From assembly GCA_045539475.1 (NCBI GenBank), contig JAZQFJ010000045.1:2024-66023 (forward strand): DNA of 64,000 nt, in the 5' to 3' direction. The position numbers and the translations under genes were made by a program. This stretch comes from Eubacteriales bacterium. GTDB taxonomy: Bacteria; Bacillota; Clostridia; Oscillospirales; JAAYXM01. The notes under the pieces were generated by a model, which was not told where the DNA came from, made no database searches, and saw only the letters and a program-made list of their open reading frames with translations. Positions within the stretch are counted from its first letter, which is position 1; the number at the start of each line of letters is the position of its first letter. Positions 38,038 through 62,244 of the stretch are shown here, one piece after another.

Positions 38038-38216
38038 TCCAAATCGGATAATTTTAATAAGCTTTCTCATCATTCACCATAAGAAGAGGGCGTGCGGATC
38101 CATTCCGTGCGCTCTCTTCGCAATTTTTGCCGTAATTTTGTTGATATTGCTCACAACCATCTTGAAAACCAACTCTTTGTATGATACAATATTTTTATAA
38201 GGAGATGTATAATAAA

Positions 38217-38762
38217 ATGTATGAAGATGTAAAAAACGCTCTGCACACTGCGGCACAAGAGCTTATTGAAAATGCAGAGCTTTCCCATGGCGATATTGTT
38301 GCCGTAGGCTGTTCCACCAGCGAGGTTATGGGTGAGAAAATCGGCACATCGAGCGTTGCCGAGCTTGGCAAGCTTATCTACGATTCCCTTGCAGAGGTAT
38401 TCTCCCCTGCCGGGATTTACATTGCGGCACAGTGCTGTGAGCATTTAAACCGCGCTATTATTATAGAGCGCGAAGCGGCAAAAGGCGCATACATATGCAA
38501 TGCCGTTCCTCAGCCGAAGGCAGGCGGCTCTTTTGCAACCGCGGCATACGGCGCAATGCGCGATCCGGTCGCACTTGAGAGCATATCCGCCGATGCGGGT
38601 ATGGATATCGGCGACACGCTTATCGGTATGCATATACGTCCCGTTGTTGTTCCCTGCCGTCTGTCGGTCAAAAATATCGGCGCGGCACACCTTGTCTGCG
38701 CGCGAAGCCGTGCGAAATTTATCGGCGGTGAGCGAGCACATTACGACGACAATCTTAAATAA
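38217..38762 (+). CDS. TIGR01440/UPF0340-family protein (YwlG-like)
   Basis: VAVGCSTSEVMGEKIGT and AAQCCEHLNRAII match what I remember of the family. Confidence 0.6.
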   Translation: MYEDVKNALHTAAQELIENAELSHGDIVAVGCSTSEVMGEKIGTSSVAELGKLIYDSLAEVFSPAGIYIAAQCCEHLNRAIIIEREAAKGAYICNAVPQPKAGGSFATAAYGAMRDPVALESISADAGMDIGDTLIGMHIRPVVVPCRLSVKNIGAAHLVCARSRAKFIGGERAHYDDNLK

Positions 38763-38870
38763 CTTTATTTTACAAAAAAGGAATGTAAAAATTTATCTCC
38801 ACGTTTTTCCTTACATAAAAATCCCTTGAATGTAAACAATAGTGTTATAACATCAAAACAAAAAGGGGAT

Positions 38871-40721
38871 TTATATAATGAAAGCTACAGGTATTGTACG
38901 CCGTATAGACGATCTCGGGCGTGTCGTTATTCCGAAGGAAATCCGTCGCACAATGCGTATTCGTGAGGGCGACCCCTTGCTGACAACATTGACAGTATAA
39001 GCCTTTGCCCTCCGGTTACGCACCTTTTGAGCATATTCGGCGTTATATGAGATACCTATACTGTCAAACTGAAAATTTACAAGCGCCTCACGGTTCGGGA
39101 GCTTTCCGGTTTTCAAGAGGCTATCTATATCTGCTTTTAACCGGATATCAACCGTGCCGTTTTCAAACACTTCGATTTTGTCTACGATTAAAGATATATC
39201 CATCTTGGAAAGCTTTTCCTTATTGAGGATATCCTCAAATACATCAAAAACGGTTTTTGAAACACGTGCAATCTCAACGATAGAGCTTCTCTTTTCGATA
39301 TTGTCGCGAAGCTGTGCTTGATAGCCGTAAATTCGATGTGTAATTTCATCCTCAAGCTCTGAGTATGTTTCCTCCAGTATATCCGCATCACCGGGATTTT
39401 TTGCAATATCGCGGATTTTCTGTTTCTTAATTGCTTTTAATTCTTCTTTGGCACCTGTAAGCTGTTTCTCCAAAAGCTTTATTACTGCTTCGCTGTCTTT
39501 TACAGTTTCTGCTTCGCTTGCGATTGTTTTCTCAAGCTCTTCTATCATATCGCTGCAATTCATTTTTACCAGCCTGATATAGTCCTTTAAAACCGAATCA
39601 AGAAAGTCTACTCTTATATGATGTGCAGTGCATGCTTTAAGACCTCGCTTATGATATGTTCCGCAAATATATGAAGGAGCGAGATTCGGACGGCTTCTGC
39701 TGAACATAGGTTCTCCGCAGTCACCGCAAAAAAGATATCCGGTGTACGGAGTTTCGTATTTTTTCACTCCGCGGTAATGGGATTTGGTCCGCTTTTCAAG
39801 CAGTTCCTGCGTATACATAAAAAGCTTGTCATCTATTATTGCCTTATGATGCTTCTCAATTACAATATGCTCGTTCTCATCAACTCTTGTATCTTTACCT
39901 TTAATTGATTTGCGCGTGTACTTGTGTCCTCTGAAGGTTCCTATATAGTAATCGTTGCGTAAGATAGTCTGAACAGAAACAATGCTCCACGCTTTTTTCA
40001 CCGTTCTGTTATAATCCCGCTCAGATTCCTCCGCACGCTCTTTTTCTTTCATCCTCGGCGTGGGGATTTTCTTATCTGTGAGATAGTTTGCTATCTTCAT
40101 ATAACCCCAGCCTTCTTCAGAATAAAGGCGGAAAATTTCTTTTATAACCTCAACCTCATCGGCAACGGGTTCAACAAGATTTTTCTTCTGGTTTTTGATT
40201 ATATATCCATACGGTACGGCGCAAAGCCACTCCCCCGCCTGTTGTTTCATATCAATAACGCCACGGACCTTTTTACTCGTTTCCGTAACCGGCATTTCAT
40301 TGAACAAAAAGCGTATGGCAATGTTCGTCCATTCATCGTTTGTCGGATAGTCAATGCTGTCCATTATGCTGATAATACGGACGTCCCTATCCCTCATTTT
40401 TTCAAGCTCGTGAAGGCCAAGGCTCGTTCTTCTCGAAAAACGAGAAAAATCCTTGACGATCAAAATTTTTGACTTGCCGCTAAGAAGCCTTTCCCGCAGC
40501 ACCATATAATTCTCACGTTCTTCAAAGGTATATCCCGAGCGGTCTCGGTCAACATATTCTCTTACTGTGCACTTAGGAAAACGCTGTTGTATGAATGTGT
40601 TTATTATTTTAAGCTGGTTTTCAATGGATGTATTGGAATCGCTCTCGCGCTCTGTATCAACCGAAATTCGCGCATATACGGATATCTCCTCCGTAAGCTC
40701 ACAATCGGGAGTTTTGACCAT
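38871..40721 (-). CDS. Large serine recombinase (resolvase/invertase N-domain, recombinase domain, zinc ribbon, coiled coil)
   Basis: VYARISVD...IENQ...DRDRSGYTFEER...LIVKDFSRFSRR, zinc ribbon CGDCGEPM...C, and a long helical region. ATG 40721 follows AAGGCGGTG. The last ~35 codons are antisense to the spoVT fragment. Confidence 0.9.
   Translation of the reverse strand: MVKTPDCELTEEISVYARISVDTERESDSNTSIENQLKIINTFIQQRFPKCTVREYVDRDRSGYTFEERENYMVLRERLLSGKSKILIVKDFSRFSRRTSLGLHELEKMRDRDVRIISIMDSIDYPTNDEWTNIAIRFLFNEMPVTETSKKVRGVIDMKQQAGEWLCAVPYGYIIKNQKKNLVEPVADEVEVIKEIFRLYSEEGWGYMKIANYLTDKKIPTPRMKEKERAEESERDYNRTVKKAWSIVSVQTILRNDYYIGTFRGHKYTRKSIKGKDTRVDENEHIVIEKHHKAIIDDKLFMYTQELLEKRTKSHYRGVKKYETPYTGYLFCGDCGEPMFSRSRPNLAPSYICGTYHKRGLKACTAHHIRVDFLDSVLKDYIRLVKMNCSDMIEELEKTIASEAETVKDSEAVIKLLEKQLTGAKEELKAIKKQKIRDIAKNPGDADILEETYSELEDEITHRIYGYQAQLRDNIEKRSSIVEIARVSKTVFDVFEDILNKEKLSKMDISLIVDKIEVFENGTVDIRLKADIDSLLKTGKLPNREALVNFQFDSIGISYNAEYAQKVRNRRAKAYTVNVVSKGSPSRIRIVRRISFGITTRPRSSIRRTIPVAFII
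38878..38979 (+). pseudogene. spoVT: 5' fragment (34 codons) of a spoVT-type AbrB-fold regulator gene, interrupted
   Basis: Too short for the ORF track. RBS aaaagggga then ATG, encoding MKATGIVRRIDDLGRVVIPKEIRRTMRIREGDPL. The family continuation (EIF...) is replaced by LTTLTV-stop (TAA 38998-39000). Confidence 0.75.
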
Positions 40722-40783
40722 ATTATCACACCGCCTTTTAGACTTTCTTATAACATTGTAACACATTTAACCGCCAAGGTCAA
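38980..40783 (-). mobile_element. Left-end module of an integrated element (junction in spoVT, recombinase and its promoter). The right boundary is not identified within the window.
   Basis: spoVT homology is lost abruptly at 38979/38980. The recombinase gene abuts the junction, and this segment is visibly AT-richer than the flanks. Confidence 0.55.
40755..40783 (-). promoter_or_regulatory. Promoter of the serine recombinase gene
   Basis: Minus strand: TTGACC, 17 nt, TACAAT, about 30 nt before the RBS. Confidence 0.55.
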
Positions 40784-41032: not shown

Positions 41033-42610
41033 TCACTTCTTAAAGCAGCGATCTGCAATGCGTCTCATATTTCCGCCAAGAATTTTCTTTTTATCCTCAA
41101 CAGATACGTTTGCAAAAGCAACCCATCCAAGCTGCGGACGAGGATCGCGCATCGGAGCATCCGTTCCATACAGCGTTTTGCTTGCAAGACCTTCCTCGCA
41201 AAGATACTCTATGACGCCTTCCGGAACGCTTGTAAACGTAAGTTGGAGATACACATTGTCATACTTCTTGGCAAGCACAGCATAGCTCTCTGCGCAAGCA
41301 AAGCTTCGTCCTGCATGGTCAAGGAAGAATGAAATATTCGGATACTTCTCGGCGAGTTCTTCCATGTCTGAAAGGTATGTGGGATATCCACCGCTGTCCA
41401 TAAGCGCAAAAAGGTGATTTTCATTTGCAATCTTAAGCCATGGTTCATACACTGGGTCGTTATATCTTACCCCTGTTCTTGAATAGAACATCTTCATTGC
41501 CGGCATCTTCTCTTCAATATGGTAGTGGTATGCCTCTTTCTCTATATCCTCCACATAGTTCGGATCAATGAGGACATACGGATAAACTCGCTTATCTCGT
41601 TTTGCCATATCTGAAACGAGAAGATTTCCCGCTTCGCTGTCTGTCCATATACCAAGCCACGGTGCCACGCAGTATTCATCAACACCCATTATATCGGAAA
41701 GCATTGACATGTGCTGAAGGTCTCCGTCAACCATAGAAAATCCTCCGCCACAGTTTCCGCCATTCTCAAGAAAATGTGCGTGTGAGTCAAACACAGGTGC
41801 GCTTATCGGCTTGCCCTCTGATGCTTCAACTGCAATTTCATCATTCTGCACCTCAACCTCGGTAGGTAAAGGAATGTTACAAAGCCTTGCAAGGTTTCCA
41901 CCTGCCATAAGTTGCTTTTCCTCATCGCTTATTTGAGCATAATCGATAAACGCACGTGCAGCACCCGGACACATCAGCGGAAGCCCGCTTCCCATACACA
42001 CACGCTCTGCTCCAAATTCCTTTGCTATGATTTCTACCGCAAAATTTGCCTGCATACTCGAAAGGTCAGTATACAGGTTGGGGTATTTTCTGAGATATGC
42101 AGCAAGGTTATGGAAATCAGACCACGCCGTTCCCTGAAGCAGAACATTAAGTTGCTTATGATTTGAAAGAATTGCAGAAAGCTCATCCCAGCTAATCTGT
42201 AGCTTGTCAATGAGAAGCGGTATTCCATCCTCTTCAAGTACACTGTAATATTCTCCCATCACATCCTCACACGGAGAGAAAATATGCGTTTTCGGGAACA
42301 TTTTTACCGCAACCATATTCTTACTTTTCATATCAGAAACAAATTCATCCGGCTTTAAGAAACTTCCTGTATATCCCGGGGCAATTACATAGCAACCATA
42401 GAAGCGACTGTGCTTTGAAAGCTCCTCCGCAAGGCGCTCGTTTCCGTAGGCGGGCGCGTAGTCGCGCGCCCATCCCGAATACACAAGCGCTCCAGCTATC
42501 CCTGCTCTATCCATTGCGGCAAGTATATCCTCGCTCTTCCATATTTCCCGATGGTCTTTAAGCCCACGTTTCCCTATACATACGTTTGAATCGAAATATA
42601 TCAGTGACAT
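41033..42610 (-). CDS. Amidohydrolase-fold protein with two metal-dependent hydrolase-like halves
   Basis: Two half-repeats start IYFDSNVCIG and VFDSHAHFLE. GAGGTG RBS before ATG 42610; the ORF track starts at GTG 42622. Confidence 0.55.
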   Translation of the reverse strand: MSLIYFDSNVCIGKRGLKDHREIWKSEDILAAMDRAGIAGALVYSGWARDYAPAYGNERLAEELSKHSRFYGCYVIAPGYTGSFLKPDEFVSDMKSKNMVAVKMFPKTHIFSPCEDVMGEYYSVLEEDGIPLLIDKLQISWDELSAILSNHKQLNVLLQGTAWSDFHNLAAYLRKYPNLYTDLSSMQANFAVEIIAKEFGAERVCMGSGLPLMCPGAARAFIDYAQISDEEKQLMAGGNLARLCNIPLPTEVEVQNDEIAVEASEGKPISAPVFDSHAHFLENGGNCGGGFSMVDGDLQHMSMLSDIMGVDEYCVAPWLGIWTDSEAGNLLVSDMAKRDKRVYPYVLIDPNYVEDIEKEAYHYHIEEKMPAMKMFYSRTGVRYNDPVYEPWLKIANENHLFALMDSGGYPTYLSDMEELAEKYPNISFFLDHAGRSFACAESYAVLAKKYDNVYLQLTFTSVPEGVIEYLCEEGLASKTLYGTDAPMRDPRPQLGWVAFANVSVEDKKKILGGNMRRIADRCFKK

Positions 42611-42618
42611 TTTAGTTT

Positions 42619-43335
42619 TCACCTCATCATTGTTTCAACAAGAGATGTTGCAAAAAGGTTATGCAGTTCCCTCGTCGGGTGATTTAATTTGTTTGACAAA
42701 AGCTCCGTCACATTGACACCGAGTTCTGCCATTCTCTTCCACTTTGCATAAACATCGCATACGGGAACATTCTCCTCCTCGCAGAGCGTTCTTGCCGCAT
42801 CCATATAGCGATCGAGCACACCGCGCCTTTGCCGGTCAGAAAGCTTTTCCGCAAGCTCAATAAAATCGGGGTGAATCGTTTCACTCACATTTTCCGCAAG
42901 CATACACGGCGTCATAAAGATTATCTCACTTTCCACTTCACGAAGACAACGGAAAATCTCGCGAAGGCTCTCTACATATTCAGCAAGTCCCTCGTCCTCT
43001 TTTCCGCAATCATTTAAGCCGAAGCAGACGACTGTGAGATCCGGATTTTTTGAAAGGACATCACGTTCTATACGAGAAAGTCCATATGCTGCCCCCGTTC
43101 CCGCAACGCCTGCATTGATGATATTAAGCGGCACTGTCGGAAAAAGAACACCGAGGATTTCCGAAACCTTTTTGTGATAGACGCTTTCGCGGTCAAAAAC
43201 ATTGTCATGTCCGCCGCTTCTTCTCGGAATAAGCTCAAAGCAACCTTCAGTCACGCTGTCACCGAAAAAAGCTATCGTCGGACGGGGATTGTTTGCATCC
43301 TGCGCCTTTTTTGCAATTTTTCCTATTATTTTCAT
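42619..43335 (-). CDS. SGNH/GDSL-family hydrolase (esterase)
   Basis: Block I IAFFGDSVTEG and block III GLNDCG. ATGA overlap with the upstream gene. Confidence 0.8.
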   Translation of the reverse strand: MKIIGKIAKKAQDANNPRPTIAFFGDSVTEGCFELIPRRSGGHDNVFDRESVYHKKVSEILGVLFPTVPLNIINAGVAGTGAAYGLSRIERDVLSKNPDLTVVCFGLNDCGKEDEGLAEYVESLREIFRCLREVESEIIFMTPCMLAENVSETIHPDFIELAEKLSDRQRRGVLDRYMDAARTLCEEENVPVCDVYAKWKRMAELGVNVTELLSNKLNHPTRELHNLFATSLVETMMR

Positions 43336-44189
43336 TTTATTATCTCTCCCAAAAACTTATCGGCAAACCATTCCTGCACCTTAGCTACATAATGCGCACG
43401 GTCGGACGCGAGAACACCATAGCACAAATTGTCGTTTTCATCCCAATAGAGGCAGTCGCGCGGATCAACGAGCTTTGCACCAATGCGTTTTGCCTGACGT
43501 ACAATTTCTTCGTTTATGATATCCTCGCTCTCAAGCGGGAGATTAAAACGTTCAAGTCCACCGCGAACAACTATCTTATAAAGATATGTCGGAACATCTC
43601 CGCCCATAGACTCACGCATAACATCGAAGTGATAATCATAACGCTCTTGAAAATCATCCCGGAGGTATGCTTCATGCCAAACCTCCTGTTCGCAACCGAG
43701 CCAGTGCCATCCGATAACCTCGGGATTCTTGCCTGCATCGGTCAGGTTCTTCATAACAAGGCGGTTTATATGCAGTGCGAGCGGGAGAAGCGAAATATCC
43801 GCTTCTCCGAGTATACCGGGCTTTATTACCGGTTCTTTGTCGCGGTTCCACATTCCGTTGATTATACCCTGACTTCCGATTGAAATCTGAACGATATAGA
43901 GGTCGGGCAACTTCTTTCCGGAATCAATCGCCGCCTGCCACTTCTTTGCGATGAAATATGCAAGACTTGCCGTGTGGTCCTGGCTTTCACCGAGATTCTT
44001 GCCCATACTTGTCCACCCGCTCCACGTAACGTCCGTTATATCAAGCGACTGGTTAGGATTTCTGTCAAGGCCGAATACATTTCTCATCGGTGTAAGCACC
44101 TTGTCCTCTTCGGAAAGAAACTGCTGGTGCGCCGTTGCATTAGACTGACCGTTTATAAAAAGCACGGCAGCTTTTGTGTTTTTGTTCAC
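43332..44189 (-). CDS. SASA/DUF303-like carbohydrate esterase (sialate O-acetylesterase-like)
   Basis: N-terminal LFINGQSNA (GQSN motif). GTG start 7 nt after AAGGAG. Confidence 0.5.
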   Translation of the reverse strand: MNKNTKAAVLFINGQSNATAHQQFLSEEDKVLTPMRNVFGLDRNPNQSLDITDVTWSGWTSMGKNLGESQDHTASLAYFIAKKWQAAIDSGKKLPDLYIVQISIGSQGIINGMWNRDKEPVIKPGILGEADISLLPLALHINRLVMKNLTDAGKNPEVIGWHWLGCEQEVWHEAYLRDDFQERYDYHFDVMRESMGGDVPTYLYKIVVRGGLERFNLPLESEDIINEEIVRQAKRIGAKLVDPRDCLYWDENDNLCYGVLASDRAHYVAKVQEWFADKFLGEIIK

Positions 44190-44200
44190 ACTGATACTCC

Positions 44201-44773
44201 TTATTCGGGCTTGGTTTCAAGCTTTAACGGGAAATCGCCGAGCTTATTTACCTTGAAGCCGTTTTTCTTATACTCTTCATAGTCAAATGCCTCAAGCTCG
44301 TCAATTGCAAGCTTATGGAACTCATAAAAATTCTTCCACCATTCATAGCCTGAGCCAAGTTCTGCATTAAGATATGCATCTGCAATATCACAGCCCATTG
44401 CCGGAGCAACATAAAAAGCACCCATAGCAAGAACGTTTACGCCGTTGCCCGTGATTGCGCGCAGTGCTGCAGGAACGCTCTCAACAACGCCTGCATGAAC
44501 GTGCGGGCATTTGCTTGCAGCGATATGGATACCCATACCTGTGCCGCAGAAGAGCAGTGCACGCTCAAACTCGCCCTCGCTTATCATTGAGCCGACGCGA
44601 AGACCGACTCTATGGAACATAAGGTCTGTATCATTCGGGTCGGAATCTTCTCTTACGCCTACGTCAGTTATCTTCCAGCCCTTTGCCTTAAGATGCGCAA
44701 CAACCGCTTCTTTAAGCGGGAATCCTGCAAAGTCTGCGCCCACAACAAGATATTTGTCTTTAACCAGTTTCAT
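44201..44773 (-). CDS. RpiB/LacA/LacB-family sugar-phosphate isomerase with C-terminal extension
   Basis: LFCGTGMGIHIAASKCPHVHAGV. GAGGAG RBS. Confidence 0.7.
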   Translation of the reverse strand: MKLVKDKYLVVGADFAGFPLKEAVVAHLKAKGWKITDVGVREDSDPNDTDLMFHRVGLRVGSMISEGEFERALLFCGTGMGIHIAASKCPHVHAGVVESVPAALRAITGNGVNVLAMGAFYVAPAMGCDIADAYLNAELGSGYEWWKNFYEFHKLAIDELEAFDYEEYKKNGFKVNKLGDFPLKLETKPE

Positions 44774-44798
44774 AATTCATTACTCCTCTATAAAAATT

Positions 44799-46250
44799 TT
44801 AATGTGCACATTTTCCGAATACCGTAAAGCTGATAACCCCCGGCTCTATCCCTTCCGGCGCACCGAGAACCGTTAGACGGACTTTTCTTGCTGTTACCGT
44901 CTCAAACGTGCGATAATCCACGCAATAGTCAATCTTATTTTCTGATGCGTCGACAAGCATTTTCCATTCGTCCGAATCCGGAGCTGAGTATTCAACTTTA
45001 TACTGAAAAGCACCAGGGTTGATTCCATCGAGTGTTTCCATCCCGACATCGCGCCAGATTATGCGGCAAGACTCGATGTGATAGCCCTTTTCCGCGGCGA
45101 GGTCAATTTCTAAAGTTTTCTCCTTATCCTCGGGAGTCGGTTGCCACCATGTAAGTGCGCAATCATCCGTTGCGTAAATCGGCTCACGTCCCGGCATATG
45201 GCTTGATGCCTCAACCGGCTGGAAAAACGTAAGTGGCAAAAGTCCTGCATCGTTGCCACACTCGGGTTCTTTCATAACTCCCGGTGCAAACTGCGGTGTT
45301 TCTGTGAGTGCAGGGCAGAAAAGCTCTCCATTTTCGTCAATACCGAGAGGATCCATACCGACTCTTCTTTCAAATTTATAGTGGTGACCAAAGAAATATG
45401 TATAGAATATCCAGTATGTATTGTCGGGCCCTTCTGCTATACTTCCGTGCCCTGCACCGCGGAGAAGTCCGGTAGGCTTACGTGTAAGCGGATCGTGCTT
45501 CTCCTGACGGCGAAATCCGGAAAGCGGACCTTCATCAGAATAGAGGATTCCACAAGCATAGGAAGAATACTGTGTGCCGCTTCCCGAATAGAGAAGATAA
45601 TAGCGCGAACCTATTTTTATCATCCACTGGCCTTCCGTCCATCCGATGCGCTCATTCTGATTATATTCACCGTGGCGCTCCCACTCTTTGTCGGGTGAGA
45701 ATGTGTTTATCCACACCGGTTCCGAGATAAGCTTCCACGGCTCATTCGGGTCGCATTCCGCACCAACGGTTCCGGTAACGCATTCAACATCCTCCCCTTC
45801 CTCAGGCTCTCTTATTTCACACCAGTAAAAATATAGCCGGTCATTCTCTGTAAAATAACAGCCGTCGGGAACTTTCATTTCATTCCCGTGCATATCAGTG
45901 AGGTTGCCGCAATGTTTGAAGGGACCTAAAGGACTATCCGCAACATACATTTCAGGCAGGCTGTGACCGCTTAAATACCACTTTCCGCGAAACTGTACCA
46001 CCGCAGGACTGTAACGCAGATTGTCAATCCCGATATCAACCTTTTTCCAATGAACAAAATCCTCAGTTACATGTGCAAGGCTGTAGCTTGCATACATAAT
46101 CCATTTTCCGTCGTGATATATAACGCTCGGGTCTGAAATAGAGCGGTAATCCTCAAAATTTCTTATATCAATCCCCGTGTGCTCTACATCCAGCCATCTT
46201 CCGCTGGCAACCTTCTCAACGCACAAGGGATTACAATATGTTCTTTCCAT
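44799..46250 (-). CDS. Beta-propeller glycoside hydrolase-like protein (GH43-like) with C-terminal discoidin/F5-8-type-C domain
   Basis: Blade-like DPSVIYHDGKWIMYAS, SPAVVQFRGKWYLSG, GAGHGSIAEGPDNTYWIFY. C-terminal ...IIWRDVG...KVRLTVLG. ATG 46250 (MERTYCNP) is preferred over the ORF-track start 46307. Confidence 0.55.
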   Translation of the reverse strand: MERTYCNPLCVEKVASGRWLDVEHTGIDIRNFEDYRSISDPSVIYHDGKWIMYASYSLAHVTEDFVHWKKVDIGIDNLRYSPAVVQFRGKWYLSGHSLPEMYVADSPLGPFKHCGNLTDMHGNEMKVPDGCYFTENDRLYFYWCEIREPEEGEDVECVTGTVGAECDPNEPWKLISEPVWINTFSPDKEWERHGEYNQNERIGWTEGQWMIKIGSRYYLLYSGSGTQYSSYACGILYSDEGPLSGFRRQEKHDPLTRKPTGLLRGAGHGSIAEGPDNTYWIFYTYFFGHHYKFERRVGMDPLGIDENGELFCPALTETPQFAPGVMKEPECGNDAGLLPLTFFQPVEASSHMPGREPIYATDDCALTWWQPTPEDKEKTLEIDLAAEKGYHIESCRIIWRDVGMETLDGINPGAFQYKVEYSAPDSDEWKMLVDASENKIDYCVDYRTFETVTARKVRLTVLGAPEGIEPGVISFTVFGKCAH

Positions 46251-46325
46251 TTTATTTTCCTTCTTTTGTATGTCTTTGCCCGCAAATGAAGCTTCATCTG
46301 CGGGCATATTTTTCTTACAAGGTGT

Positions 46326-47879
46326 TTACTTTACGCGATTATATGCAGATGTATATGCTGCAATGACTTCATCAACACCCATTGACTTTACAGTCTCAAC
46401 AAATGTATCAAAGTTAGAGAGCGGCTCCTGACCGAGAATGAACTTGATAAGCATTTCTTCTGTATATGTATAAAGTCCGGTCCTGTATGTTTCGATCACT
46501 TTCTGCTCTTCATCATTGAAGTCTAGCCACAATGTTACCGGATATTCAGGAAGCGTATGCTCAATGATGAGGTCTTCACTTTCAAGAGTTGTCTCGGACT
46601 GCATTGCCTCTGCAGCAAGCGGATCAAGGCGGCAGAATGTACCATAGGTCTGGAAGCCATACATTGTATCCGGAAGAGTTCCCGCTTCATCAGTAATGAA
46701 CTTCTTCTTTCCGTCAACAACTTCGTATGTCTCTCCTTCCTTACCCCATGAGACAAGCTCCATAGCCTCGTCGGTATACATCCAGTCAATGAACTTCGCC
46801 GCATTGCCTATTCCCTTTGTGTTTCCTGTGTCTGTAATCGAAAAGCCTATCATTTCAAGGTCGCCGCGTTCGATCATGGAAACTCCCTTTTCGGGGTTTG
46901 CAACAGGAGGTGCAAGTGCCTGAAGCTTATAGTCTGTTTTTCCGCCCTTCTTTGCGAGCTGGTTGAAATAATCTATGCGAAGCTGAAGGTGCGGCAAGAT
47001 AAAGCCGCGATCTGTAAGCATAAGCTCTTCCCATGTAGCATTGTTGAGATTATACGCATCTGCTGGCATAAGCTTTTCTTCAATCATCTTCTTATAGAAT
47101 GATACAATCTCAAGAGCCGTATCTTCGATTGCACCCCAACGCCACTCGTCATCGTCAAAATCATAGTAGATACCATATTCCCACCATTTATCAAATGATG
47201 AACCGGCAATGTTGAACATATATGACATAGAGCGTGTGCAGAACGGGTAAGAATCCGGATAAAGCTCCTTAAGCTCCTTACATACTGAATAAAGCTCCTC
47301 ATAAGTTTCCGGAACCTTGAGGTTATGCTTTTCGAAAATATCCTCACGATAGAGCCATGCACGCATACGGGTTTTTCCCTCGCGACCCGAACCCGGAGTG
47401 TAGTAAACCTTTCCGTCAGCGCGCTTTCTCGGCTTGACTGCTACATTGTATTCCTCTTCAGAAAGGGACTCGAGCCATGCATTGTAGTTAGGCATATACT
47501 CTTTTAAATCATCAAAAGCAATAAGCCCTTCTCCTGCATATTGGGAATGTGTTCCCGCAACGCTGAATGCAATAATATCCGGAAGCTCTTCGCGGGCTGC
47601 AAACATAATCGGAAACTTTGTGGCTGCATCTGACGCAGGAACGGCAATAATGTTGAGCGTTGCGCCGGAGCCTTCCTGCATATATTCCCAAATCTTCCAG
47701 TCTTCGCGAACAGGCCAGCTTGCAGATGACTCAACCATAAAGTTAATAACATCATCTTTTGTGAGCGGCTCTGCTGCATCCGTACCGTCAAGCTGCGTTG
47801 CTCCACCACTGACACCGCCGCAAGCGCAAAGTGCAAGCATCATAATTGCGGCAAGGATTAATGCGATAAGTCTTTTCAT
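46326..47879 (-). CDS. Extracellular solute-binding lipoprotein (ABC family-1 type, large ~517 aa); no permease genes adjacent
   Basis: MKRLIALILAAIMMLALCACGG lipobox. AAGGAGG RBS before ATG 47879. Confidence 0.75.
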   Translation of the reverse strand: MKRLIALILAAIMMLALCACGGVSGGATQLDGTDAAEPLTKDDVINFMVESSASWPVREDWKIWEYMQEGSGATLNIIAVPASDAATKFPIMFAAREELPDIIAFSVAGTHSQYAGEGLIAFDDLKEYMPNYNAWLESLSEEEYNVAVKPRKRADGKVYYTPGSGREGKTRMRAWLYREDIFEKHNLKVPETYEELYSVCKELKELYPDSYPFCTRSMSYMFNIAGSSFDKWWEYGIYYDFDDDEWRWGAIEDTALEIVSFYKKMIEEKLMPADAYNLNNATWEELMLTDRGFILPHLQLRIDYFNQLAKKGGKTDYKLQALAPPVANPEKGVSMIERGDLEMIGFSITDTGNTKGIGNAAKFIDWMYTDEAMELVSWGKEGETYEVVDGKKKFITDEAGTLPDTMYGFQTYGTFCRLDPLAAEAMQSETTLESEDLIIEHTLPEYPVTLWLDFNDEEQKVIETYRTGLYTYTEEMLIKFILGQEPLSNFDTFVETVKSMGVDEVIAAYTSAYNRVK

Positions 47880-47944
47880 TTTATTTCCTCCTTGTTTTTT
47901 CATGGTCCGGTGGGAGAAAATCTCCCACCGACCGTTTTTTACTG

Positions 47945-50900
47945 CTACGCGATATAGTCGAGAATTCTCTTGATGAGAACTGCAACCTCTGCACGGGTGG
48001 TGTTAGCAAGCGGGTCAATAAGACCGTTCTTACCGTTGACAAGCTCTGCCTTGACAAGCGCAGAAACCGCTTCCTTTGCATAATCTGCAACTTCATTGAA
48101 ATCAGCCGCCTGAGGCTCATCTTCCGCTGCGGTGATTTTCTCCATCGAATACAGTGCACGATAAACTATAACCATCATATCCTGACGGGTTATTGTGTTT
48201 CTCGGTGCGTATTTATTGTCACCGATGCCGTTTACAATACCTGCATTGCGTGCTATTGCAAGCTCTGATGCGAAGTAGTCATTTTCATTTACGTCTGCAA
48301 AGTTTTCGGTATTGTCCGATGCGAGCTTGAATGCACGGACAAGCAGGAGCGCGAAGTCTGCGCGCGTTATATTCGCGGATGGACTAAACGTACTTGCAGA
48401 CGTGCCCTTTATTATTCCATCCTCTGCAAGATAGTTTATCGCGCTCTCTGCCCATGCGTGATTAGAAAGGTCTGTGAAACGGATAGTATCCGTTTCACCC
48501 GACGCGTCGGGTGCGGTGTTCGCATCATCTGCAGTTTCGCCGTTTTCTGTGCCATCGGGGGCTTCCTGCTTATCGGTAGGTGCGGCATCTCCGCCACCAC
48601 CGCCGCCTCCGCCACCGCCGGACGGTGTGGTGGTATCATCGGTGCTTCCGGAATTGTCGGTTGACTGGTTATCATCTGCCGATGGCTTACTTGTCGTCGA
48701 ACCGTAGACCGTTACCGTAAAGTGAACAGTTGTTTCCGTAATCCCGTCAGTCACGGTTATTGCAAAGTGATTGTCGCCAACCTGCGAGCTATCCGGTTTC
48801 CATGTGACGGTCATATCATTTGCGCTTACGGTTGCTCCTCGCGGAAGCGATGTTCCAACAGCCCAAATTGCTCTTCCCGCAGGGCTGTATGCGCTTATCG
48901 GAATTGATATAGAGCTTCCTGCCGAGGTTGTATAGTTCTTGGGTTGAACAACATTCGGTGCACTGTCATAAATGCTTGAAACCGGAATTCTGAGCGTTTG
49001 CCCCTCATCAATATTATAAACATATCCGCGAGCTGTGTTATTTACGTCAACATAGCTTCTGATTAGGGAAACATCACCTATATTAAGCTTAATATTTCCG
49101 TCTTCGACAGATGCAGACTCGATTCTGTATGCGCCGTTCCGGACTCCGTCGTTCTCGACATATACAAACTTACCTGCGAGAGCCTCATTAGCAGCCTTCG
49201 TATCGTTAAGAGCAATCTCATTATCGGGCTTGTAAACGATATAGTTCTCCTTTGAAAGATCTTCTGTGAAGCTCTGAACCTTTCCTGTGTATGCCGCGAT
49301 TGCTTCTTCGGTTTCAGTATCACCAACGAGTTTTAAAACCTCACCGTCGTTGAGATATGAGTGGATGATTTTTCCTTCCTTATCAAAAGAAATTACACCT
49401 GCAAAGCCACGGAAGTTTATTTTATCCTCTATAACATAATCAACCGAATTATTGGTTGAATACATTATATAATCAACTCTTCCGTTCTTAAGAGTTACCT
49501 TGACTGCACTGTAAGCGTCAAGAACACCCGGCTTTGAATCTTCCTCACGGACCATCGGAACCTTTTCAATTTTTTCAATATACTTATTCGTTACATCATA
49601 CGGTTCAAAAACGGTCGTGAATACCGTGTCAAGATTTGTTCCGCGATTTCTGACAAGCATATATTCAAGGTTTCCTGCATGAGCGTTGCTCTTATTCTGC
49701 GGAGGCAGCGCCTTTGCAAAGGATACTTCAGAAACAGGACTGTCATTCAGCATCGTGACTCTCAGGCGGACATCACGTTTCTTATCCATAACCTTTTTCC
49801 AGTCCTTGACATTGAACTCAACAGTGAAATCCTTTTCAACAGAGTTATAGGTACGTACATCACGAAGCCATGTATATCCTTTCGGGTAAACTTCAGAACC
49901 GGCACCACCCGGGTCCGGACCGTATTTTACATCGGGACCTGCATATGTACCGTAAAGGTTTCCTTTATCATCCGTATACATCGGTGTCGCTTCCATATCT
50001 CCAAGACCGGAAATAGCCGTATGCTCATCGGACTGGCTGTGGAAGCTGTAGAGATGGTCGTCGCCGCCCTTGATATGGAAGAAGTCAACACCATAAGAAA
50101 TTTCATCATCGACATCAACCATAACTACCGATCTTCTGTATTCCTCAGTATTGCTGTACACATCGGCGCTTATATCCATAAGCTTGACGCGTCCGGAATC
50201 ATCGAAGTGTATCGGAGTCTGAGTAGCCTTAATTGTCTCCTGCTCATTCTCATCAACGACAACCGTGTTGTGAGAAATCGTTGTGCTTACCCACTGAACG
50301 CGGTTCGGCTGCTGACCAGTTTGCTCCGGATATCCGATATCGGGAGCGATATTGAGACCATATGCATCTGCAAAGAGGTTCAATGTATCGCGGTGACCGT
50401 GCATATCATTTTTTCCGAAATAGATTGCAAAGTCGCGATGCGTGTTGTTATAGCTTGATGTGCTTGCGGAGTCATGTTCTCCGCCGGCGCGAAGCGCGGC
50501 AAAACCGTAGCCTGCAAGCATATCACTGGGAAGAGCAAGCTTTCCTTCCGTTTCAATTACCTCTTCAATATCCTTTGTAAGCTGCTCGGGATCGTCATCA
50601 AGGATACTGCCGCGAAGCTCGATTCCACGCGTCTCATGCAAGAAGTAAAGCGCCTGAGCAAGAATCGGCTGCTTCGTGTTCTTATATGCCAGAAGAATAT
50701 CATCCTCTACAACTGCAAGACCCGTTCCTCCGATTGCACCGAAGTCGCCTGTGTGCGAGGTGTAGTAACCGCCGAGAAGCAGACGGATCTGAGCCGCAAA
50801 CATCTTTGTAAACTTCGGGTTTTCATAAAGGTCAGCCTGCGGATAAAGCTCAAATCCACGCAAAAGCTCTGCAACGCCCTGGAAGTGCGTAATCAATTCG

Positions 50901-53900
50901 CGGTTATATCCCGGAGAATTTTCCTTTCCGTTTCCGTCGCGGTCAATATCACCGATAAGTGACCCCATAAACATGCCACCGGCAGCAGGAATAGTTCTCG
51001 GAATCTTACCTGTGTTTATACCGGAAGTTCCAGCAACCGGACCCGGAGCGAATATCCAATCAATCATCTCGATTGATTCAGGTGCTCTGTTGAGAGAAAC
51101 CGCTGCAGCTGCAACAGATTTCTGGTGCATACCGAAGTTACCCCAGTTTTTGCCGTATTTTGTTCGTTCGAATATTTTAAGAATAAGGTTTTCTTCGACA
51201 TTCTTTCTTACTGCGCCGGGGCTGTCTTTAAGGTTAACCGGAATAAGCTCTCCACTTTCATCCTTAACCCAGTTGCCAAATTCATCCTTTTCATATTGCG
51301 GCGCTCTCTCGGAGAGATATTCAATTACCGCAGGGTCATTGTAAATCGGCTTAAACGCATCGTATGCCATTGCAAAATCATAGGTCATAAATGTGGACCA
51401 GACAGGGTCAACGATTGTACCATAGTAATCGTCGCCGCGCCAGGTATGCCACTGGAACCAGTCATAGCCGGGGAAGAAGTCGGCAACTCTGTCGAGAAGA
51501 ATTGCGCCCGCTCTTCCGTATTTCGCTTCACCCGTGTACACAAAAGCCGTGGCAAGAGAATTTATTGCCTTTCTGATTATCTCATCTCCTGCATACCACA
51601 AGCCGTTGTGGATGAAGTATCCAATATAGGTATACTGTACCGGACCTTTATATGCTCCGTCTGTATACCACGCATAACCTTCGTTATCATAGTAGCGTGG
51701 GTCATATCCCGGAACCTTTGTTACGTCTCCGCCCTCGCCGACAATTTCTTTTGCCTTTTCAATCGAAATATAGGGCATTTTATATCCGAAGCCGTCGTCA
51801 ACACCCCATCCCGCGATACCGAGCTTCGTGTCAAGCTCAGGATAAAGATCGTTTGTGAGATATCCACCCTTGACATTATATCCGTAGTGGTCCTTCCACT
51901 CCTGGCTTTCGCGAGCCTCGTTCCAGGCATCAAGCTCTGCTGTCCACTCTGCCGTTCCGGGTGTCTTTGTTGTATAGCTCGGGAATTTGCCGATGTGCGA
52001 ACACTCATTTCCCGCCTTTACATCCTCACAGACAAACTTTTCATGATGCTTCTGAAGTGCTCTGTCAATTGAGAATGTTCCATCGTCTGCAAGACCAAGC
52101 TTATAGAAGGAGCCAAAGTCGTTTGACGGGAACAGACGCTTACAATCCGGACACTGAACCTTCCACGGTCTGTTTATAGGATCTGTATCAAATACCGCAT
52201 TGTATTTCGTTCCGATATCCGCTCCGCAGTAACGGCAGAAGTTCTGCAACGGGTCGTACTTATGGCCGATATGGTAAAAACGCGGCAGACCTTCGGACAC
52301 GACAAGCTCATACAGCAAATCAAGCTTTTCAACGTATTTCTCTGCTTCTGACTTAACAGCCTTTACCTCATCGCGAGCCCATGAATATCGCTGTGCGTTT
52401 TTCTTTGCGTTTTCGCGCTCCTCTAATGTGTATATCGTCGGGTCAACGGTTGCATCCCAAGTAACCTGGAGCGCAAGCGGCTTAATTACAATTCCTTCTG
52501 CCGCACCGTTTTTATAATCCGCGCTGACAGTTGCGGATATTACCGCAGTACCAACGCCGATACCGTAGACACTTCCGTCTTCTGAAAGCTCAACATATTC
52601 GGAGCCTTCAACGAGTTCCCATGTAATGAACTCGCCAGGAACTGTGAGTATATTTCCGCTGTTCATACGCGCGCTTACACCAAGCTTTGACCCTCCGTAA
52701 ACGTAAATAGACTCAGGAGCGGTAATCTTGATTCCGTTTTCAGCGATACCTGAATTGTCGGAAACCGAAACAGTAAATTCGGCTTTCTTCGTTATGCCGT
52801 CATATGTTACTGTTGCGGTTATTTTTGCTTTACCTTCGCTGATACCGGTGATTGCACCGTTTTCATCAACCGTTGCAATATCGGGATTTTCAGATTTGTA
52901 TACGACAGCTGTAATATCGCCGTCTGCATATCCGATATCCTCACCCTTGACGGTTTTGAGCTTAAGCGTGGTGTTTACCGTTTCACCAAGACCTAAAACA
53001 TCGCTTCCGCTCTCCGTCACAATTTCTGCACTGCCTAAAGCGTTTTCGTCTGCAAACGTAAACGAATTCATATAAGCGGCATCACCGCCTGCCTTTGCTT
53101 CTCCGCTTTCGCTTACACGATAGACAACAAGATGCTCGCCTTCTGTAATTTCCTTTATGCCAAAGGGCTTTACGCAGCCGTCATTGTCTTCAACCTCAGA
53201 ATAGAAATCCGCCGTTCCGACATAATATTCACTTGTCGGTACTGCATATTTGAGGATGTTGTTTTCAAACTCCTCTGTTGCAGGCATAACGTAAAGGTCG
53301 AGCGCCGCATTTCTCCAACGGCTTCTGAACATATCGCCTTCTGCAAGATATGTGCTGGTTTTAGGGAACTTAACCTTAAATGCAACGTATGAATTATAGA
53401 GATTTGTTCCCTGCCAGACTATCTGTGCAGATGTTTTCGGACCGTTAAGCAGTATATCGGGATATCTCGGATCAATGTTTTCCACACTGTGGAATATCCA
53501 CGGGCGGAAATCCGTATATGATTTAATATCATTTACCCTGCTGTAGTTATCGGCGGGGTATGCACCCTGATTAAAGTTAATTGCAACAACGGATGAGGGT
53601 GGCACGTCTTCGCTGAAAACAACAATTTTTTCGGGTACACTCTCAATGATATTTCCGCGAATGTTGATTTTCGCCTTTACTTCAAAGGTTCCGGCCTTCG
53701 CCGCGCGGACACCATCTTCTGTCAGAGTTGCAACACCGTCTTCAGACTGATTCTGAATCTCAAGGCTTTCGATTGTTCCGCCGGGCAGAACCTTTCTGTT
53801 TACAAGCTCATAACCGGTTGTGAAGAGAAGCTCTTCGCCAAGCATAATCCTGTTGTTTGTGTAAAGATACGTTTTTGCTATTTTGTAATCATTATCAACG

Positions 53901-56395: not shown

Positions 56396-56466
56396 TTTTT
56401 CCTCCTTGTGGAAATGTGTAAGGGGCAAGCAAGCCTCCCTCCGTGTGTGAAGGGAGGCTTGTTTTT

Positions 56467-59400: not shown

Positions 59401-59544
59401 GTCAGGCTCTAAAAGAGCTGTGCATCTAAAATCATACTCGAGAGTGGTTGTGGTCGCCTCACCCTCTGCCGCAAATACCGTCGGAAGCATACCTCCTATC
59501 ATGCATATTGTGAGTAGAAATGCTAAAAGTCTTTTGCTTTTCAT
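56467..59544 (-). CDS. Secreted 1025-aa protein made of three module copies, an Ig-like domain and C-terminal Listeria/Bacteroides-type repeats
   Basis: Signal peptide MKSKRLLAFLLTICMIGGMLPTVFA. AAGGAGGAG RBS before ATG 59544. Motifs GYTFRRWVRG...LTAVY and GFKFLDWFTAKD. Confidence 0.85.
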   Translation of the reverse strand: MKSKRLLAFLLTICMIGGMLPTVFAAEGEATTTTLEYDFRCTALLEPDGTPHGTDTVKYSDVNNYTVNEEKSNYWKFERLINVDNAPFQDNGLYFKTARAGITPNNNAVVFTINVPASGSYTASVSGYKNYYNNEWTDIYLVSKDVVTAKGWNVATIGGIQAAIAVSSMNDPAASVKHIASYDACYNATGADDELAENVYLFAGDYYMFVVASDSTTDPSPGTEDASNIWGMLTKLTLTSEDAVEAAPVVYSFVAEAVKAGVASQDMRFMKDYTQLDSSISTGAWMYSGFCHRMDGYTMYPDADGGATFRAAKGNLGNNAFILKAKVENSGTYTPSMVYTTYSQYGKLNIYFVPVSYADSKWTMSDTNLNLAEVFGDEGVKLVASQNGWVSSGSTANITGEYGDVYLGSGEYYVLISLFEGNGVSTHVSNAYFKTKGLTLTPQSAVALTASKDTVKVRETATVSVALKNEAGNTAPTSSVTYKSLAPSVATVDNSGVVTGVEEGTATIQVTASSCGVEFTSTIDITVSRDVKYVFTKQATDGTLLELMRYTNIDSAVSAPWRYMCKTNIETGSVTDYGLNFRVNGTYIGNGGYVLKIPVENPGIYTPAVTWDARTNNSIVNTYIVPAAYANARWSMANGTNLADIAADTAGVKLVVSADMSTSDEKKSGNPIKLSDDEYYVIVLISELGNGNDSEGKAFAMLESLELDWVSALSEDVENQYVSLALTDNVNKEITVEGSQYRRGDEVEIEAPEIEGYTFRRWVRGTEEQGELVSTEPSFTYKLITNTYLTAVYTPNVEEDAKIVEFFNGNREYITTVNVVDDKVEAPAAPSLTGFKFLDWFTAKDTKLSETVLTAPVTRAVAVFEDTGDRFTVDGVEDLKYDTKITRTYNDKDSVVWYRDDVRVGFGTTYEYYVWDNVEKITYVEGTAQPLVVLDKAVKTDSTGTNAYMIEYDAGGKTIVEVGILFGGSEGGTVDSCEYKAVSQEKGGTTGHGQFTAKPANSTQTAARGYMIYQDGSEYKVVYSD
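58216..58806 (-). repeat. Module copy C (in the 1025-aa protein), closest to copy A
   Basis: APVVYSFVAEAV...ILKAKVENSGTYTPSMVYTTYSQYGKLNIYFVPVSYADSKWTM...GEYYVLISLFEG...LTLTPQ. Long nucleotide identities to 55700-56296 are visible. Confidence 0.85.
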
Positions 59545-59780
59545 TTTAAACTCCTCCTTGTAATTTAAAGGCATAATTGCCCTTTGATACAATAATACTA
59601 TTTTTCTTGTGCCCATTCAACCGATACCCTTTACACATCGGGCAAATATAATCTTTGACACTTCCGAAAACATATGCCGTACCCCAAGCGAAAAGCCCGG
59701 GGTATAGCAAATGTTTTACGAAAAGGTCAAGGTGCAAACAAACGCAGAAACTATCGAAAAACAATAAATAAATATTTATT

Positions 59781-61157: not shown

Positions 61158-61178
61158 AATTTGCCTCCTAAATATAAA

Positions 61179-62201: not shown

Positions 62202-62244
62202 CTTAATTTCCTCCTTATGAATTATCGAATACATTATACACTAT

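Follow-up and report, generated by a model that had tools for sequence, protein, structure and literature searches.

Results

An interrupted spoVT gene

The window analysed here, a 64-kb stretch of DNA taken at its full length, carries the following features (positions are those of the window).

38217..38762, + strand: DUF436/TIGR01440 host gene (Pfam PF04260), the native left neighbour of spoVT, which also precedes intact spoVT in the same-species loci L132, L135 and L136
38763..38877, + strand: native spoVT upstream region with the RBS AAGGGGA (38863-38869) and TGAATG-N18-CATCAAA, nearly identical in the uninterrupted same-species L132
38878..38972, + strand: host-derived 5' part of spoVT, from codon 1 to the GA of codon 32 (33/34 in tblastn; 95% nucleotide identity to the same-species allele until 38975)
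38878..39000, + strand: truncated 40-codon ORF, SpoVT residues 1-34 followed by LTTLTV and a stop, with the tail coming from the recombinase-side att arm
38948..38995, no strand assigned: hybrid att site (attL, reverse-orientation type), compared with attP of the free phages L008 and L010, attR of L001, the same junction type in L003 and L004, and the same-species attB
38871..40721, - strand: large serine recombinase (LSR) of 616 aa with a YARIS motif (Ser20); Pfam Resolvase, Recombinase and Zn_ribbon_recom; phrog_95 integrase
40755..40783, - strand: candidate sigma-70-type promoter of the LSR gene, TTGACC, 17 nt, TG-n-TACAAT (10/12 matches plus an extended -10; a consensus match only)
41033..62234, - strand: probable cargo of co-oriented polysaccharide-utilisation genes (Pfam; no match to the same-species DNA that follows spoVT)
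62487..63524, + strand: LacI-family regulator (Pfam); the right end of the element was not found in the window

The ATG at 38878-38880 on the + strand, with the RBS AAGGGGA 5' of it, opens a frame that encodes MKATGIVRRIDDLGRVVIPKEIRRTMRIREGDPL and then LTTLTV before a stop ending at 39000. When the window was searched by tblastn with B. subtilis SpoVT, residues 1-34 matched at 33 of 34 positions (E = 2e-16), and residues 35-178 matched nowhere on either strand of the 64 kb. All 34 residues of the fragment recur unchanged at the N-terminus of the intact SpoVT (180 aa) encoded in contigs of the same species. The preliminary description of this DNA had recognised a spoVT N-terminus at this ATG, a frame ending six codons past codon 34 and no 3' part of the gene on the + strand, and all three points were borne out. 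The upstream TGAATG-N18-CATCAAA that it had noted as resembling a forespore sigma-F/G promoter is present as well; it is identical in the intact same-species locus and thus belongs to the native spoVT upstream DNA, and it is not conserved in more distant spoVT loci. Rfam and tRNA scans returned nothing near the junction.

At the corresponding locus, spoVT is uninterrupted in contigs of the same species, which are 95.25% identical to the window over 10.8 kb, up to position 38975 inside spoVT. From there the empty site goes on with the 3' part of spoVT, WecG and further genes, which are all absent from the window. Since the same-species gene is uninterrupted and matches the window until 38975 before diverging, the insertion is strain-specific and precise. 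The element is polymorphic within the species, and in the strains with intact spoVT a single spoVT gene sits at the window's locus. The flanks, 95% identical to those of the empty-site strains, and the unaltered sequence of the fragment indicate that the insertion is young.

The three LSR domains typical of phage-type serine integrases (PF00239, PF07508 and PF13408) all scored above threshold and are all kept in an ORF without frameshift, which the ORF listing extends to 631 aa via an upstream ATG. The closest solved relative is SprA/YokA of SPbeta (E = 1.6e-18), and the phage database gave nothing above 51% identity. Resembling the promoter candidate, TGTGTTACAAT was found upstream of the P0011 recombinase. 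The preliminary description had correctly placed a 616-aa LSR on the opposite strand, but the gene continues past the break, with its last ~33 codons (from about 584) antisense over the spoVT fragment, in host DNA, and its stop codon (38871-38873) 5 nt upstream of the spoVT ATG. The locus thus combines an interrupted sporulation coding sequence with a recombinase gene beside the junction, as expected for an intervening element.

Attachment site and crossover point

In this LSR family, attP is embedded in the 3'-terminal codons of the LSR gene itself. Two palindromic arms of 15 nt enclose a spacer of 18 nt, which in its centre, GGCGACCC, copies spoVT codons 31-33. An alignment centred on GGCGACCC unites the attP sequences of L008 and L010, the attR of L001 and of at least 120 other loci, the window's attL and the attB of the same species; three other loci of the window's orientation have this arm-spacer-arm layout as well. 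In the window, the B arm (38948-38962) is followed by the 18-nt spacer (38963-38980), with a core common with attB at 38963-38975 and the central dinucleotide GA at 38971-38972, and then by the recombinase-side P arm TGACAACATTGACAG (38981-38995). The window has a single occurrence of this P arm motif, without mismatches, for a chance expectation of 0.09 matches at up to 3 mismatches. The site therefore has the inverted-repeat arms, the central dinucleotide and the attL/attR hybrids of attP and attB that characterise LSR attachment sites, and a conserved 48-bp att site is now defined for a large LSR family.

From the symmetry of the arms and the comparison with free-phage attP, we infer that crossover took place at GA 38971-38972, in codon Asp32. 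Codons 33-34 of the fragment are element DNA that by chance codes for the same Pro-Leu. The break had initially been put at 38979/38980, after codon 34; this position has to be revised, homology to the empty allele ending at 38975 and the crossover probably lying in codon 32. As the preliminary description had proposed, comparison with uninterrupted relatives yielded an intact same-species spoVT, from which attB could be reconstructed. Its central claim, that spoVT is split by an LSR-bearing element, is upheld by this intact gene, by the homology that stops inside it and by the att anatomy at the junction.

At the 5' end, the junction is intact and its register agrees with the same-species attB. 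We found no second att arm or core within the 64-kb window; the 3' junction lies off the contig, and another genome, L027, has a candidate junction of the matching type. With neither the 3' junction nor the 3' part of spoVT on the contig, the element is not delimited. We rejected an invertible DNA switch, given the single arm and core in the window, the non-palindromic GA and the fact that the two orientations observed correspond to different elements with flipped attP cores, not to one locus. An LSR inverting a segment from a fixed chromosomal attP was also discarded, the attP-form homologues being located in phage genomes and the central dinucleotide being non-palindromic.

DNA beyond the recombinase

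Past the LSR gene, the contig carries at least 23 kb of probable polysaccharide-utilisation cargo. The genes at 41033..62234 encode an amidohydrolase, a GDSL esterase, RpiB, GH43, a solute-binding protein, an aminotransferase and a GH88-like protein, together with two surface proteins, one SLH/heparinase-like (2827 aa) and one with Ig repeats (1049 aa). No phage family besides the integrase was detected in the 41-62 kb region, where structural and replication PHROG families were both missing, and the 23 kb contain no mobility gene apart from the LSR. An SPbeta-like prophage was thus rejected for the window copy, which lacks phage genes and in which Pfam identifies carbohydrate and surface-protein genes. 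A minimal element reduced to the LSR was rejected too, no 3' part of spoVT following the LSR in the window, L003 or L004.

The best database homologue of the amidohydrolase is 89% identical, whereas for a left-flank gene same-species strains reach 97% in the database. By tetranucleotide signature the right-hand DNA and the left flank are alike, so that this comparison fails to separate cargo from chromosome. In the other three loci of the window's orientation, the LSR likewise adjoins ordinary-looking carbohydrate genes, and a homologous cargo cluster is located 4-7 kb from a tyrosine-integrase module in L138. The related elements include both phages and non-phage islands. Non-phage cargo is usual beside these LSRs and includes defence genes and an exopolysaccharide cluster. 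The data provide evidence that spoVT-targeting elements ferry defence, exopolysaccharide and polysaccharide-utilisation cargo between species.

Orientation and spread of spoVT-targeting elements

The usual orientation is the reverse of that in the window and yields LSR-SpoVT_C fusion ORFs. At least 120 species-representative genome contigs carry the arm, the core and spoVT codons 31-37, and nearly all encode a fusion in which an LSR ORF of 568 codons or more runs into some 150 intact codons of SpoVT_C. The ~730-aa database proteins named "stage V sporulation T C-terminal domain-containing protein" are read-through artefacts of this integration. The C-terminus of the LSR thus depends on its state: it is a tail of ~25-30 residues in the free phage, the SpoVT_C domain in the common orientation and an antisense-encoded tail of 33 residues in the window. 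The tail may be dispensable.

Among 80 sampled metagenome spoVT loci, 27 were in the LSR-SpoVT_C state and 33 were interrupted when the three junction types were taken together; a second LSR family inserts at spoVT codon 10/11. The orientation seen in the window is uncommon: 4 of the ~120 best LSR homologues have it, and it was absent from the 80 metagenome loci. The same layout recurs in three other lineages, with LSRs 68-69% identical. A first metagenome pattern scan gave zero matches although L004 should fit, the collection evidently not including those contigs. In IMG/VR, we found three proviral contigs with the common junction and neither a reverse-orientation junction nor close LSR relatives. 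The attP-form homologues L008 and L010 are phages with large genomes encoding DNA polymerase III alpha, NrdD and a primase-helicase.

The identity between LSRs correlated weakly with that between the host SpoVT_C sequences (Spearman 0.11), and discordant pairs were observed in which the LSRs were 92-95% identical and the host SpoVT_C only 42-51% identical. Both observations indicate horizontal mobility. Combined with the polymorphism within the species, they rule out vertical inheritance followed by domestication, as in skin. The spoVT-targeting family is very common in gut and rumen Oscillospirales and is present in well over a hundred bacterial species.

Discussion

A probable integrative island in spoVT and its alternatives

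We propose, with a probability of about 0.7, that the window contains the left junction of an integrative genomic island of at least 25 kb, inserted by its LSR into the spoVT coding sequence through site-specific recombination. In this copy the core is flipped relative to the LSR gene, which places the LSR at the end adjoining the 5' part of spoVT, reading outward and taking its final codons and its stop from antisense host DNA. The LSR is probably expressed from its own vegetative-type promoter, the candidate located upstream. The integrated island leaves spoVT only a 40-residue stub, so that SpoVT is off. Precise excision should need a directionality factor and would rebuild spoVT; neither such a factor nor an excised form was found for the window island. 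We estimate that, at the population level, the island is a knock-out of spoVT that can be reversed, and programmed excision during sporulation is possible. The preliminary description had listed a dead gene, a second spoVT copy and reversible excision as conceivable outcomes.

It is distinctly unlikely, in our opinion, that a true LSR junction was followed on the right by ordinary chromosome, brought there by an inversion or a translocation linking the spoVT site to another one. Such a rearrangement would fit the compositionally native right-hand DNA without mobility genes, the presence of carbohydrate genes next to the LSR in 4/4 loci of the window's orientation and the change of gene orientation at the junction. 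The spoVT block is indeed locally inverted in the related genome L131, and L004 and L005 have the LSR and 461 bp upstream in common before diverging. Once integrated, however, the element no longer has an attP that could serve for inversion. Given the established mechanism of serine recombinases, attL and attR would not be expected to join the wrong way with the non-palindromic central GA. The same-species strains of the database have no close copy of the amidohydrolase, and non-phage cargo is the rule in the spoVT-targeting LSR family. About equally improbable is a decayed remnant, in which the LSR would be the sole survivor of an element deleted together with the 3' part of spoVT, leaving the gene permanently dead. 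The LSR start is separated by only about 310 bp from a terminator and the next operon, the lower GC is confined to the LSR gene (0.41 vs 0.46), no spoVT 3' part follows within 25 kb, and scars of earlier insertions are known elsewhere, namely in L137, where two remnants made of the spoVT 5' part plus the arm lie directly upstream of an intact spoVT. Nevertheless, the LSR ORF and its candidate promoter are intact, the insertion appears young, and the recurrence of the layout in three other lineages would require four deletions with the same endpoint.

The same L137 remnants could suggest that the 34-codon piece is a duplicated flank, with an intact spoVT elsewhere in the genome, and every contig of the P0011 group ends immediately upstream of the fragment, as it would at a repeat. 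The fragment is nevertheless at the native locus, behind the native promoter and within 10.8 kb of conserved synteny, where same-species strains have their single spoVT, and the 64 kb hold no second copy; we thus consider a decoy very improbable. That two unrelated contigs were joined at the junction by the assembler is hardly credible. The source is a metagenome-assembled genome, but the join falls at the exact centre of the att site, where only about 13 nt are common with attB, far below an assembler k-mer, and the same junction type was obtained in independent assemblies.

Comparison with known systems

To our knowledge, the sporulation genes known to be split by recombinase-bearing elements (sigK, spsM, spoVFB, spoVR and gerE) are all mother-cell genes. 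The preliminary description had made the same statement about known intervening elements, in agreement with the literature (PMC4191935, PMC5595907). SPbeta of B. subtilis, inserted in spsM, has a large serine recombinase and an att site made of a short core with flanking inverted repeats in a sporulation gene (PMC4191935); its integrase is SprA and its directionality factor SprB. It resembles the present system by its LSR, by this att architecture, by SprA/YokA being the closest solved structure and by the large phages with DNA polymerase III alpha, NrdD and primase-helicase in which free relatives of the window LSR reside. Its integrase is constitutive, and the window LSR has a sigma-70-like promoter candidate upstream. 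It differs in that spsM is a mother-cell gene and spoVT, in B. subtilis and C. difficile, a forespore gene, whereas the window copy is devoid of phage genes and of an identified SprB-like factor, has its attP inside the integrase ORF and is only distantly similar to SprA.

The skin element of B. subtilis and C. difficile (SpoIVCA) also splits a sporulation regulator gene, sigK (PMC4191935, PMC5025042), and its recombinase gene likewise adjoins the junction. In contrast to skin, which is vertically inherited and excises only in the terminal mother cell, the spoVT elements are horizontally mobile, polymorphic within a species and disrupt a gene required in the compartment that passes on its genome. 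The gin element in gerE of Bacillus cereus ATCC 10987 (GirC/GirX) is non-phage, about 28.6 kb long, depends on a serine recombinase for its movement and interrupts a small sporulation regulator gene (PMC5595907). It offers the best precedent for an LSR island that has no phage genes, although gerE is active in the mother cell and the window differs from gin in LSR family and target. Excision of gin in sporulating cells has been demonstrated. Rabinovich et al. reportedly described in 2012 that excision of phi10403S from comK of Listeria monocytogenes restores the gene without loss of the phage (active lysogeny). This is a model for a reversible switch through a prophage in a regulator gene, in a different gene and cell context from the spoVT island. 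In mycobacteriophage integration-dependent immunity and the SSV1 integrase, attP lies within a gene and integration alters the product. The likeness with our system is the attP in a coding sequence and the different C-termini of the free and integrated forms; in those cases, the change has a demonstrated regulatory role or splits the integrase.

A probable forespore target

Expression of spoVT in the forespore is established for B. subtilis and C. difficile. By analogy with these species, the target in the window would not be a mother-cell gene, unlike those of skin, SPbeta, vfbin, vrin and gin. The C. difficile sporulation regulons are covered in PMC3738446. Our literature search returned no paper linking spoVT with a serine recombinase, an integrase, prophage insertion or an intervening element, and a spoVT target is not mentioned in the supplements of the LSR survey PMC10083194 that the search covered. 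The system is of a known kind, and what is new is its presumably forespore-expressed target. Excision from a mother-cell gene is genetically harmless, whereas an element landing in spoVT, a forespore regulator, is bound to one of three fates: it abolishes sporulation, disappears from the spore line, or excises and later re-inserts.

The last outcome would make spoVT-targeting LSR elements developmental switches in the spore germ line, an idea that we regard as unlikely. Excision in the forespore would let SpoVT be made, the element would persist in the dormant spore as a non-replicating circle, and the constitutively expressed LSR would re-insert it at germination; the C-terminus of the LSR, which changes with integration (SpoVT_C, antisense tail or free-form tail), might contribute to directionality. 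If this were true, the mother-cell-only paradigm of sporulation gene rearrangement would extend to the inherited genome, and one could explain why about one in three sampled spoVT loci can carry an interruption while the 3' part does not decay. The element family has cultured carriers, Ruminococcus flavefaciens 007c and Pseudoflavonifractor phocaeensis An858, which makes the spoVT question directly testable.

Insertion in spoVT

The break in spoVT lies between two overlapping genes of the window:

38878 (ATG) to 39000 (end of stop codon), + strand: truncated spoVT ORF with an RBS, reading MKATGIVRRIDDLGRVVIPKEIRRTMRIREGDPL followed by LTTLTV and a stop
40721 to 38871, - strand: large serine recombinase (LSR) gene, 616 aa, with Resolvase, Recombinase and Zn_ribbon_recom domains

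Using a Bacillus subtilis SpoVT sequence as tblastn query, we confirmed the N-terminal fragment opening at ATG 38878 reported in the preliminary description (33/34 matches over residues 1-34, E = 2e-16), as well as its statement that the 3' portion is missing, residues 35-178 giving no match on either strand of the 64-kb window. The LSR matches phrog_95 (phage integrase family), and its best solved relative is SprA/YokA of SPbeta. It is on the opposite strand, as described, but does not merely abut the break: about 33 further codons of its ORF overlap the spoVT fragment in antisense, and its end lies 5 nt upstream of that fragment's ATG.

The DUF436 protein of the left flank has 97% identical homologues on three contigs of the same species (L132, L135, and L136), in which we recovered the order GFO/IDH/MocA oxidoreductase, DUF436, intact 180-aa spoVT, WecG, deoxynucleoside kinase and further genes; the window could thus be compared with an uninterrupted, empty site. 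It aligns with L132 at 95.25% identity over 10,767 nt (28213 to 38975), up to a base inside spoVT codon 33, and none of the DNA downstream of spoVT in L132 is present in the window in this alignment. Alignments to three further same-species contigs end at the identical base. The similarity break does fall inside spoVT, as first described, although homology to the empty allele ends at 38975 and not at 38979/38980. These alignments exclude both a duplicated flank at this locus and an assembly chimera, and they show an insertion that is real, precise, recent, and polymorphic within the species. The original structural reading, a spoVT split by an LSR-bearing element, is supported by this empty site and by the anatomy of the attachment site.

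Attachment site and recombinase C-termini

The LSR homologues exhibited C-termini of three kinds. Free forms (about 616 aa) end in ...TVNV(I/V)x-x-G(D/S)P-(S/L)LT(T/M)LT followed by some 20 residues; L008 and L010, the contigs that encode them, are phage genomes (DNA polymerase III alpha, NrdD, primase-helicase, dUTPase, XkdX, and amidase) in which the recombinase is flanked on either side by phage genes. The common integrated form, the majority of homologues, has about 731-773 aa with Pfam SpoVT_C, the LSR of locus L001 reading in frame across attR into spoVT codons 33-178. The reverse integrated form comprises four proteins (that of the window, P0011, P0013, and P0018) ending in ...GSPSRIR.VRRISFGITT..., a tail that is the antisense translation of the spoVT 5' part. 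The homologous protein P0003 and about 85 of the best 120 homologues are proteins of ~731-773 aa in public databases, where fused proteins are named "stage V sporulation T C-terminal domain-containing protein" or "recombinase family protein"; these are LSR read-throughs across attR into spoVT and not native domain fusions.

DNA comparison, with attP taken from the phage contigs L008 and L010, gave a 15-nt arm (CTGTCAAyrTTrTCA), an 18-nt spacer, and a palindromic partner arm. The spacer centre, GGCGACCC, is identical to spoVT codons 31-33, and from the symmetry of the site the central dinucleotide would be GA in the spoVT sense. The site in the window is laid out as follows:

38948-38962: B arm
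38963-38980: spacer
38963-38975: core in common with attB
38971-38972: central GA, placed by symmetry
38981-38995: recombinase-side arm

GA runs in the sense of the recombinase gene in elements of the common type, whereas reverse-type elements have the entire spacer flipped and so enter in the opposite orientation. Given the non-palindromic GA, a single locus is not expected to switch orientation, and the two orientations are different element lineages. With 76-80% identity, the window LSR resembles fused-type proteins more than it does the other reverse-type proteins (68-69%), which indicates that the spacer flip occurred more than once. The family is very common; the window element, in reverse orientation, is one of its uncommon members, with its far end outside the window.

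In L134 (ENA ERZ28654015), a further contig of this species, an unrelated sequence (ACTTTGTACCTTGTTGCTACATACC...) interrupts spoVT from 4856 onward at the same GGCGACCC core, with ~1 kb devoid of ORFs after the break. The sequence represents a third kind of element at this spoVT site in one species, so that even there the site serves more than one element.

Contig L027 (UMGS1163, Ruminococcaceae) carries at 5102-5137 the att arm, core, and spoVT 3' part with 11 in-frame codons upstream and no recombinase, apparently the right junction expected of a reverse-orientation element; its neighbours are GH3-like and GH112-like genes and an AAA ATPase, with no phage genes. Two copies of a 102-bp unit lie upstream of the P0011 recombinase (L004 9684-9908, same stretch in L005-L007), each with a GC-rich hairpin and a perfect hairpin TTACAACATTTATGTTGTAA. 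L004 and L005 agree at every base over the recombinase gene and 461 bp upstream, and diverge completely beyond that; each of the four contigs breaks off 44-79 nt ahead of the spoVT ATG. In contig L003 (11893-12013), ~100 nt with two strong hairpins, missing from the window and L132, separate a conserved spoVT upstream block (TTCCTTACATAAAAATTCC) from the RBS.

DNA beyond the recombinase

The relatives of the window element include phages (L008, L010, and L139), and the DNA beside integrated recombinases is often non-phage.

Genes beside the recombinase at comparison loci and in the window
L001: AIPR, KAP NTPase, Schlafen-like helicase
L145: AbiJ, RhuM
L209: DEAD/ResIII helicase, Fic protein
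L204: exopolysaccharide cluster (GT2, GT4, EpsG, and PglD-like genes)
Window, part 1 of the run: amidohydrolase, GDSL esterase, RpiB, GH43, solute-binding protein
Window, part 2: 2827-aa SLH protein with heparinase-like domain, 1049-aa Ig-repeat protein, aminotransferase, GH88-like protein
Window, after the run: LacI regulator

The 21 kb beyond the window LSR form one run of co-oriented genes, among which we found no phage families. The two very large secreted proteins (2827 and 1049 aa; 47945-59616) have 300-nt internal repeats in common, and the larger has three SLH, Ig-like, and heparinase II/III-like domains; both are probably cell-surface polysaccharide-degrading proteins.

This run is probably the cargo of an integrated island, since it stands in place of the post-spoVT DNA of same-species strains, and since the amidohydrolase shares 89% identity with its best database homologue, although the left flank is represented in the same species at 97%. 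In addition, three of the products (surface protein, binding protein, and amidohydrolase) have homologues in contig L138, encoded 4-7 kb from a tyrosine-integrase module. However, the composition of the run is indistinguishable from that of the left flank, and within the window there is neither a mobility gene beyond the LSR nor a right end of the element. For these reasons we retain as rivals a chromosomal rearrangement that brought the right-hand DNA beside the LSR, which we consider unlikely, and a decayed remnant of a former element, which seems similarly improbable. At L138 11464-13909 (GCA_045544915.1), the cargo homologues adjoin genes for a frameshifted tyrosine integrase and for sigma-70_r4 and HTH_17 proteins, so that a different integrase may also move this cargo.

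Distribution and horizontal movement

The pattern of arm, core, and spoVT codons 31-37 occurs in at least 120 contigs of a one-genome-per-species collection, hosts among the matches listed being Oscillospiraceae, Ruminococcus (including R. flavefaciens 007c), Acutalibacteraceae, Pseudoflavonifractor phocaeensis An858, and some Lachnospiraceae. Nearly all matches listed, excluding loci cut by contig ends, have a recombinase ORF of at least 568 codons fused to 146-157 SpoVT_C codons, and none of these fused loci has a premature stop in the spoVT 3' part. We also sampled 80 metagenome loci through the host gene, with a SpoVT C-terminal profile instead of the element; this sample is biased to abundant species and its fractions are rough.

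State of spoVT in the 80 metagenome loci
Intact: 44
Recombinase-fused: 27
Broken at codon 10/11 (before DDLGRVV): 5
Broken at codon 19/20: 1
Undetermined: 3

A second, unrelated LSR with its own stop codon (contig L131, 18877-19113, GCA_045537045.1) accounts for the codon 10/11 junction; it is inserted between ...TTGACATAATG and GGACGACCTTGG..., and the junction was also recovered in L149, L154, L168, L186, and L215. In L131 the block from spoVT to a pseudouridine synthase gene is inverted relative to DUF436. At ~742 of contig L191, the spoVT 3' part starts at codon 19/20 (KEIRRTMRIRE...) behind an unrelated coding sequence, which may mark a further insertion site.

Recombinase identity and host SpoVT_C identity were hardly correlated (Spearman 0.11): some pairs have recombinases 92-95% identical in hosts with SpoVT_C 42-51% identical, and the converse was also seen. 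The elements are horizontally mobile and have been gained repeatedly.

Our literature search returned no report joining spoVT to a serine recombinase or integrase, prophage, intervening element, or excision, and the main text and available supplements of an LSR survey (PMC10083194) contained nothing relevant on spoVT. The mechanism, an LSR element in a sporulation gene, is already known in kind; new are the target spoVT and its cell compartment, an attP embedded in the integrase ORF with C-termini dependent on integration state, and the scale of the spoVT-targeting family.

Function and reversibility

AbrB-type DNA-binding domains have a swapped-hairpin fold, which a 34-residue stub cannot form, so SpoVT stays off for as long as the island is integrated. 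A good promoter candidate of sigma-70 type, its -10 element extended, precedes the window LSR (consensus match), a parallel to SPbeta, where SprA is constitutive. With a constitutive LSR, the direction of recombination would depend on a directionality factor; our search identified none for the window LSR.

In model organisms spoVT is forespore-expressed, so that the logic of mother-cell excision cannot both restore SpoVT and keep the element, unless an excised circle were to survive in the spore and then re-integrate. Known intervening elements sit in mother-cell genes, as the preliminary description held, and excise only there, the spore retaining the element (PMC4191935, PMC5595907, PMC5025042). 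A reversible spoVT knock-out tolerated in the population, which fits an insertion state polymorphic within the species and the remnants in contig L137 described next, seems more likely than programmed excision, which fits the lack of decay of the spoVT 3' part in about 100 loci.

In contig L137 (GCA_054277315.1), two tandem remnants (18226-18398 and 19046-19225), each made of spoVT codons 1-34, core, att arm, and a ~25-codon tail, directly precede an intact 180-aa spoVT (19334-19876) with its own promoter. Two earlier insertions seem to have left these scars at a locus where spoVT was later regained, which suggests that hosts can recover the gene by other routes. About 8 kb upstream of the remnants is a homologue of the amidohydrolase in the window.
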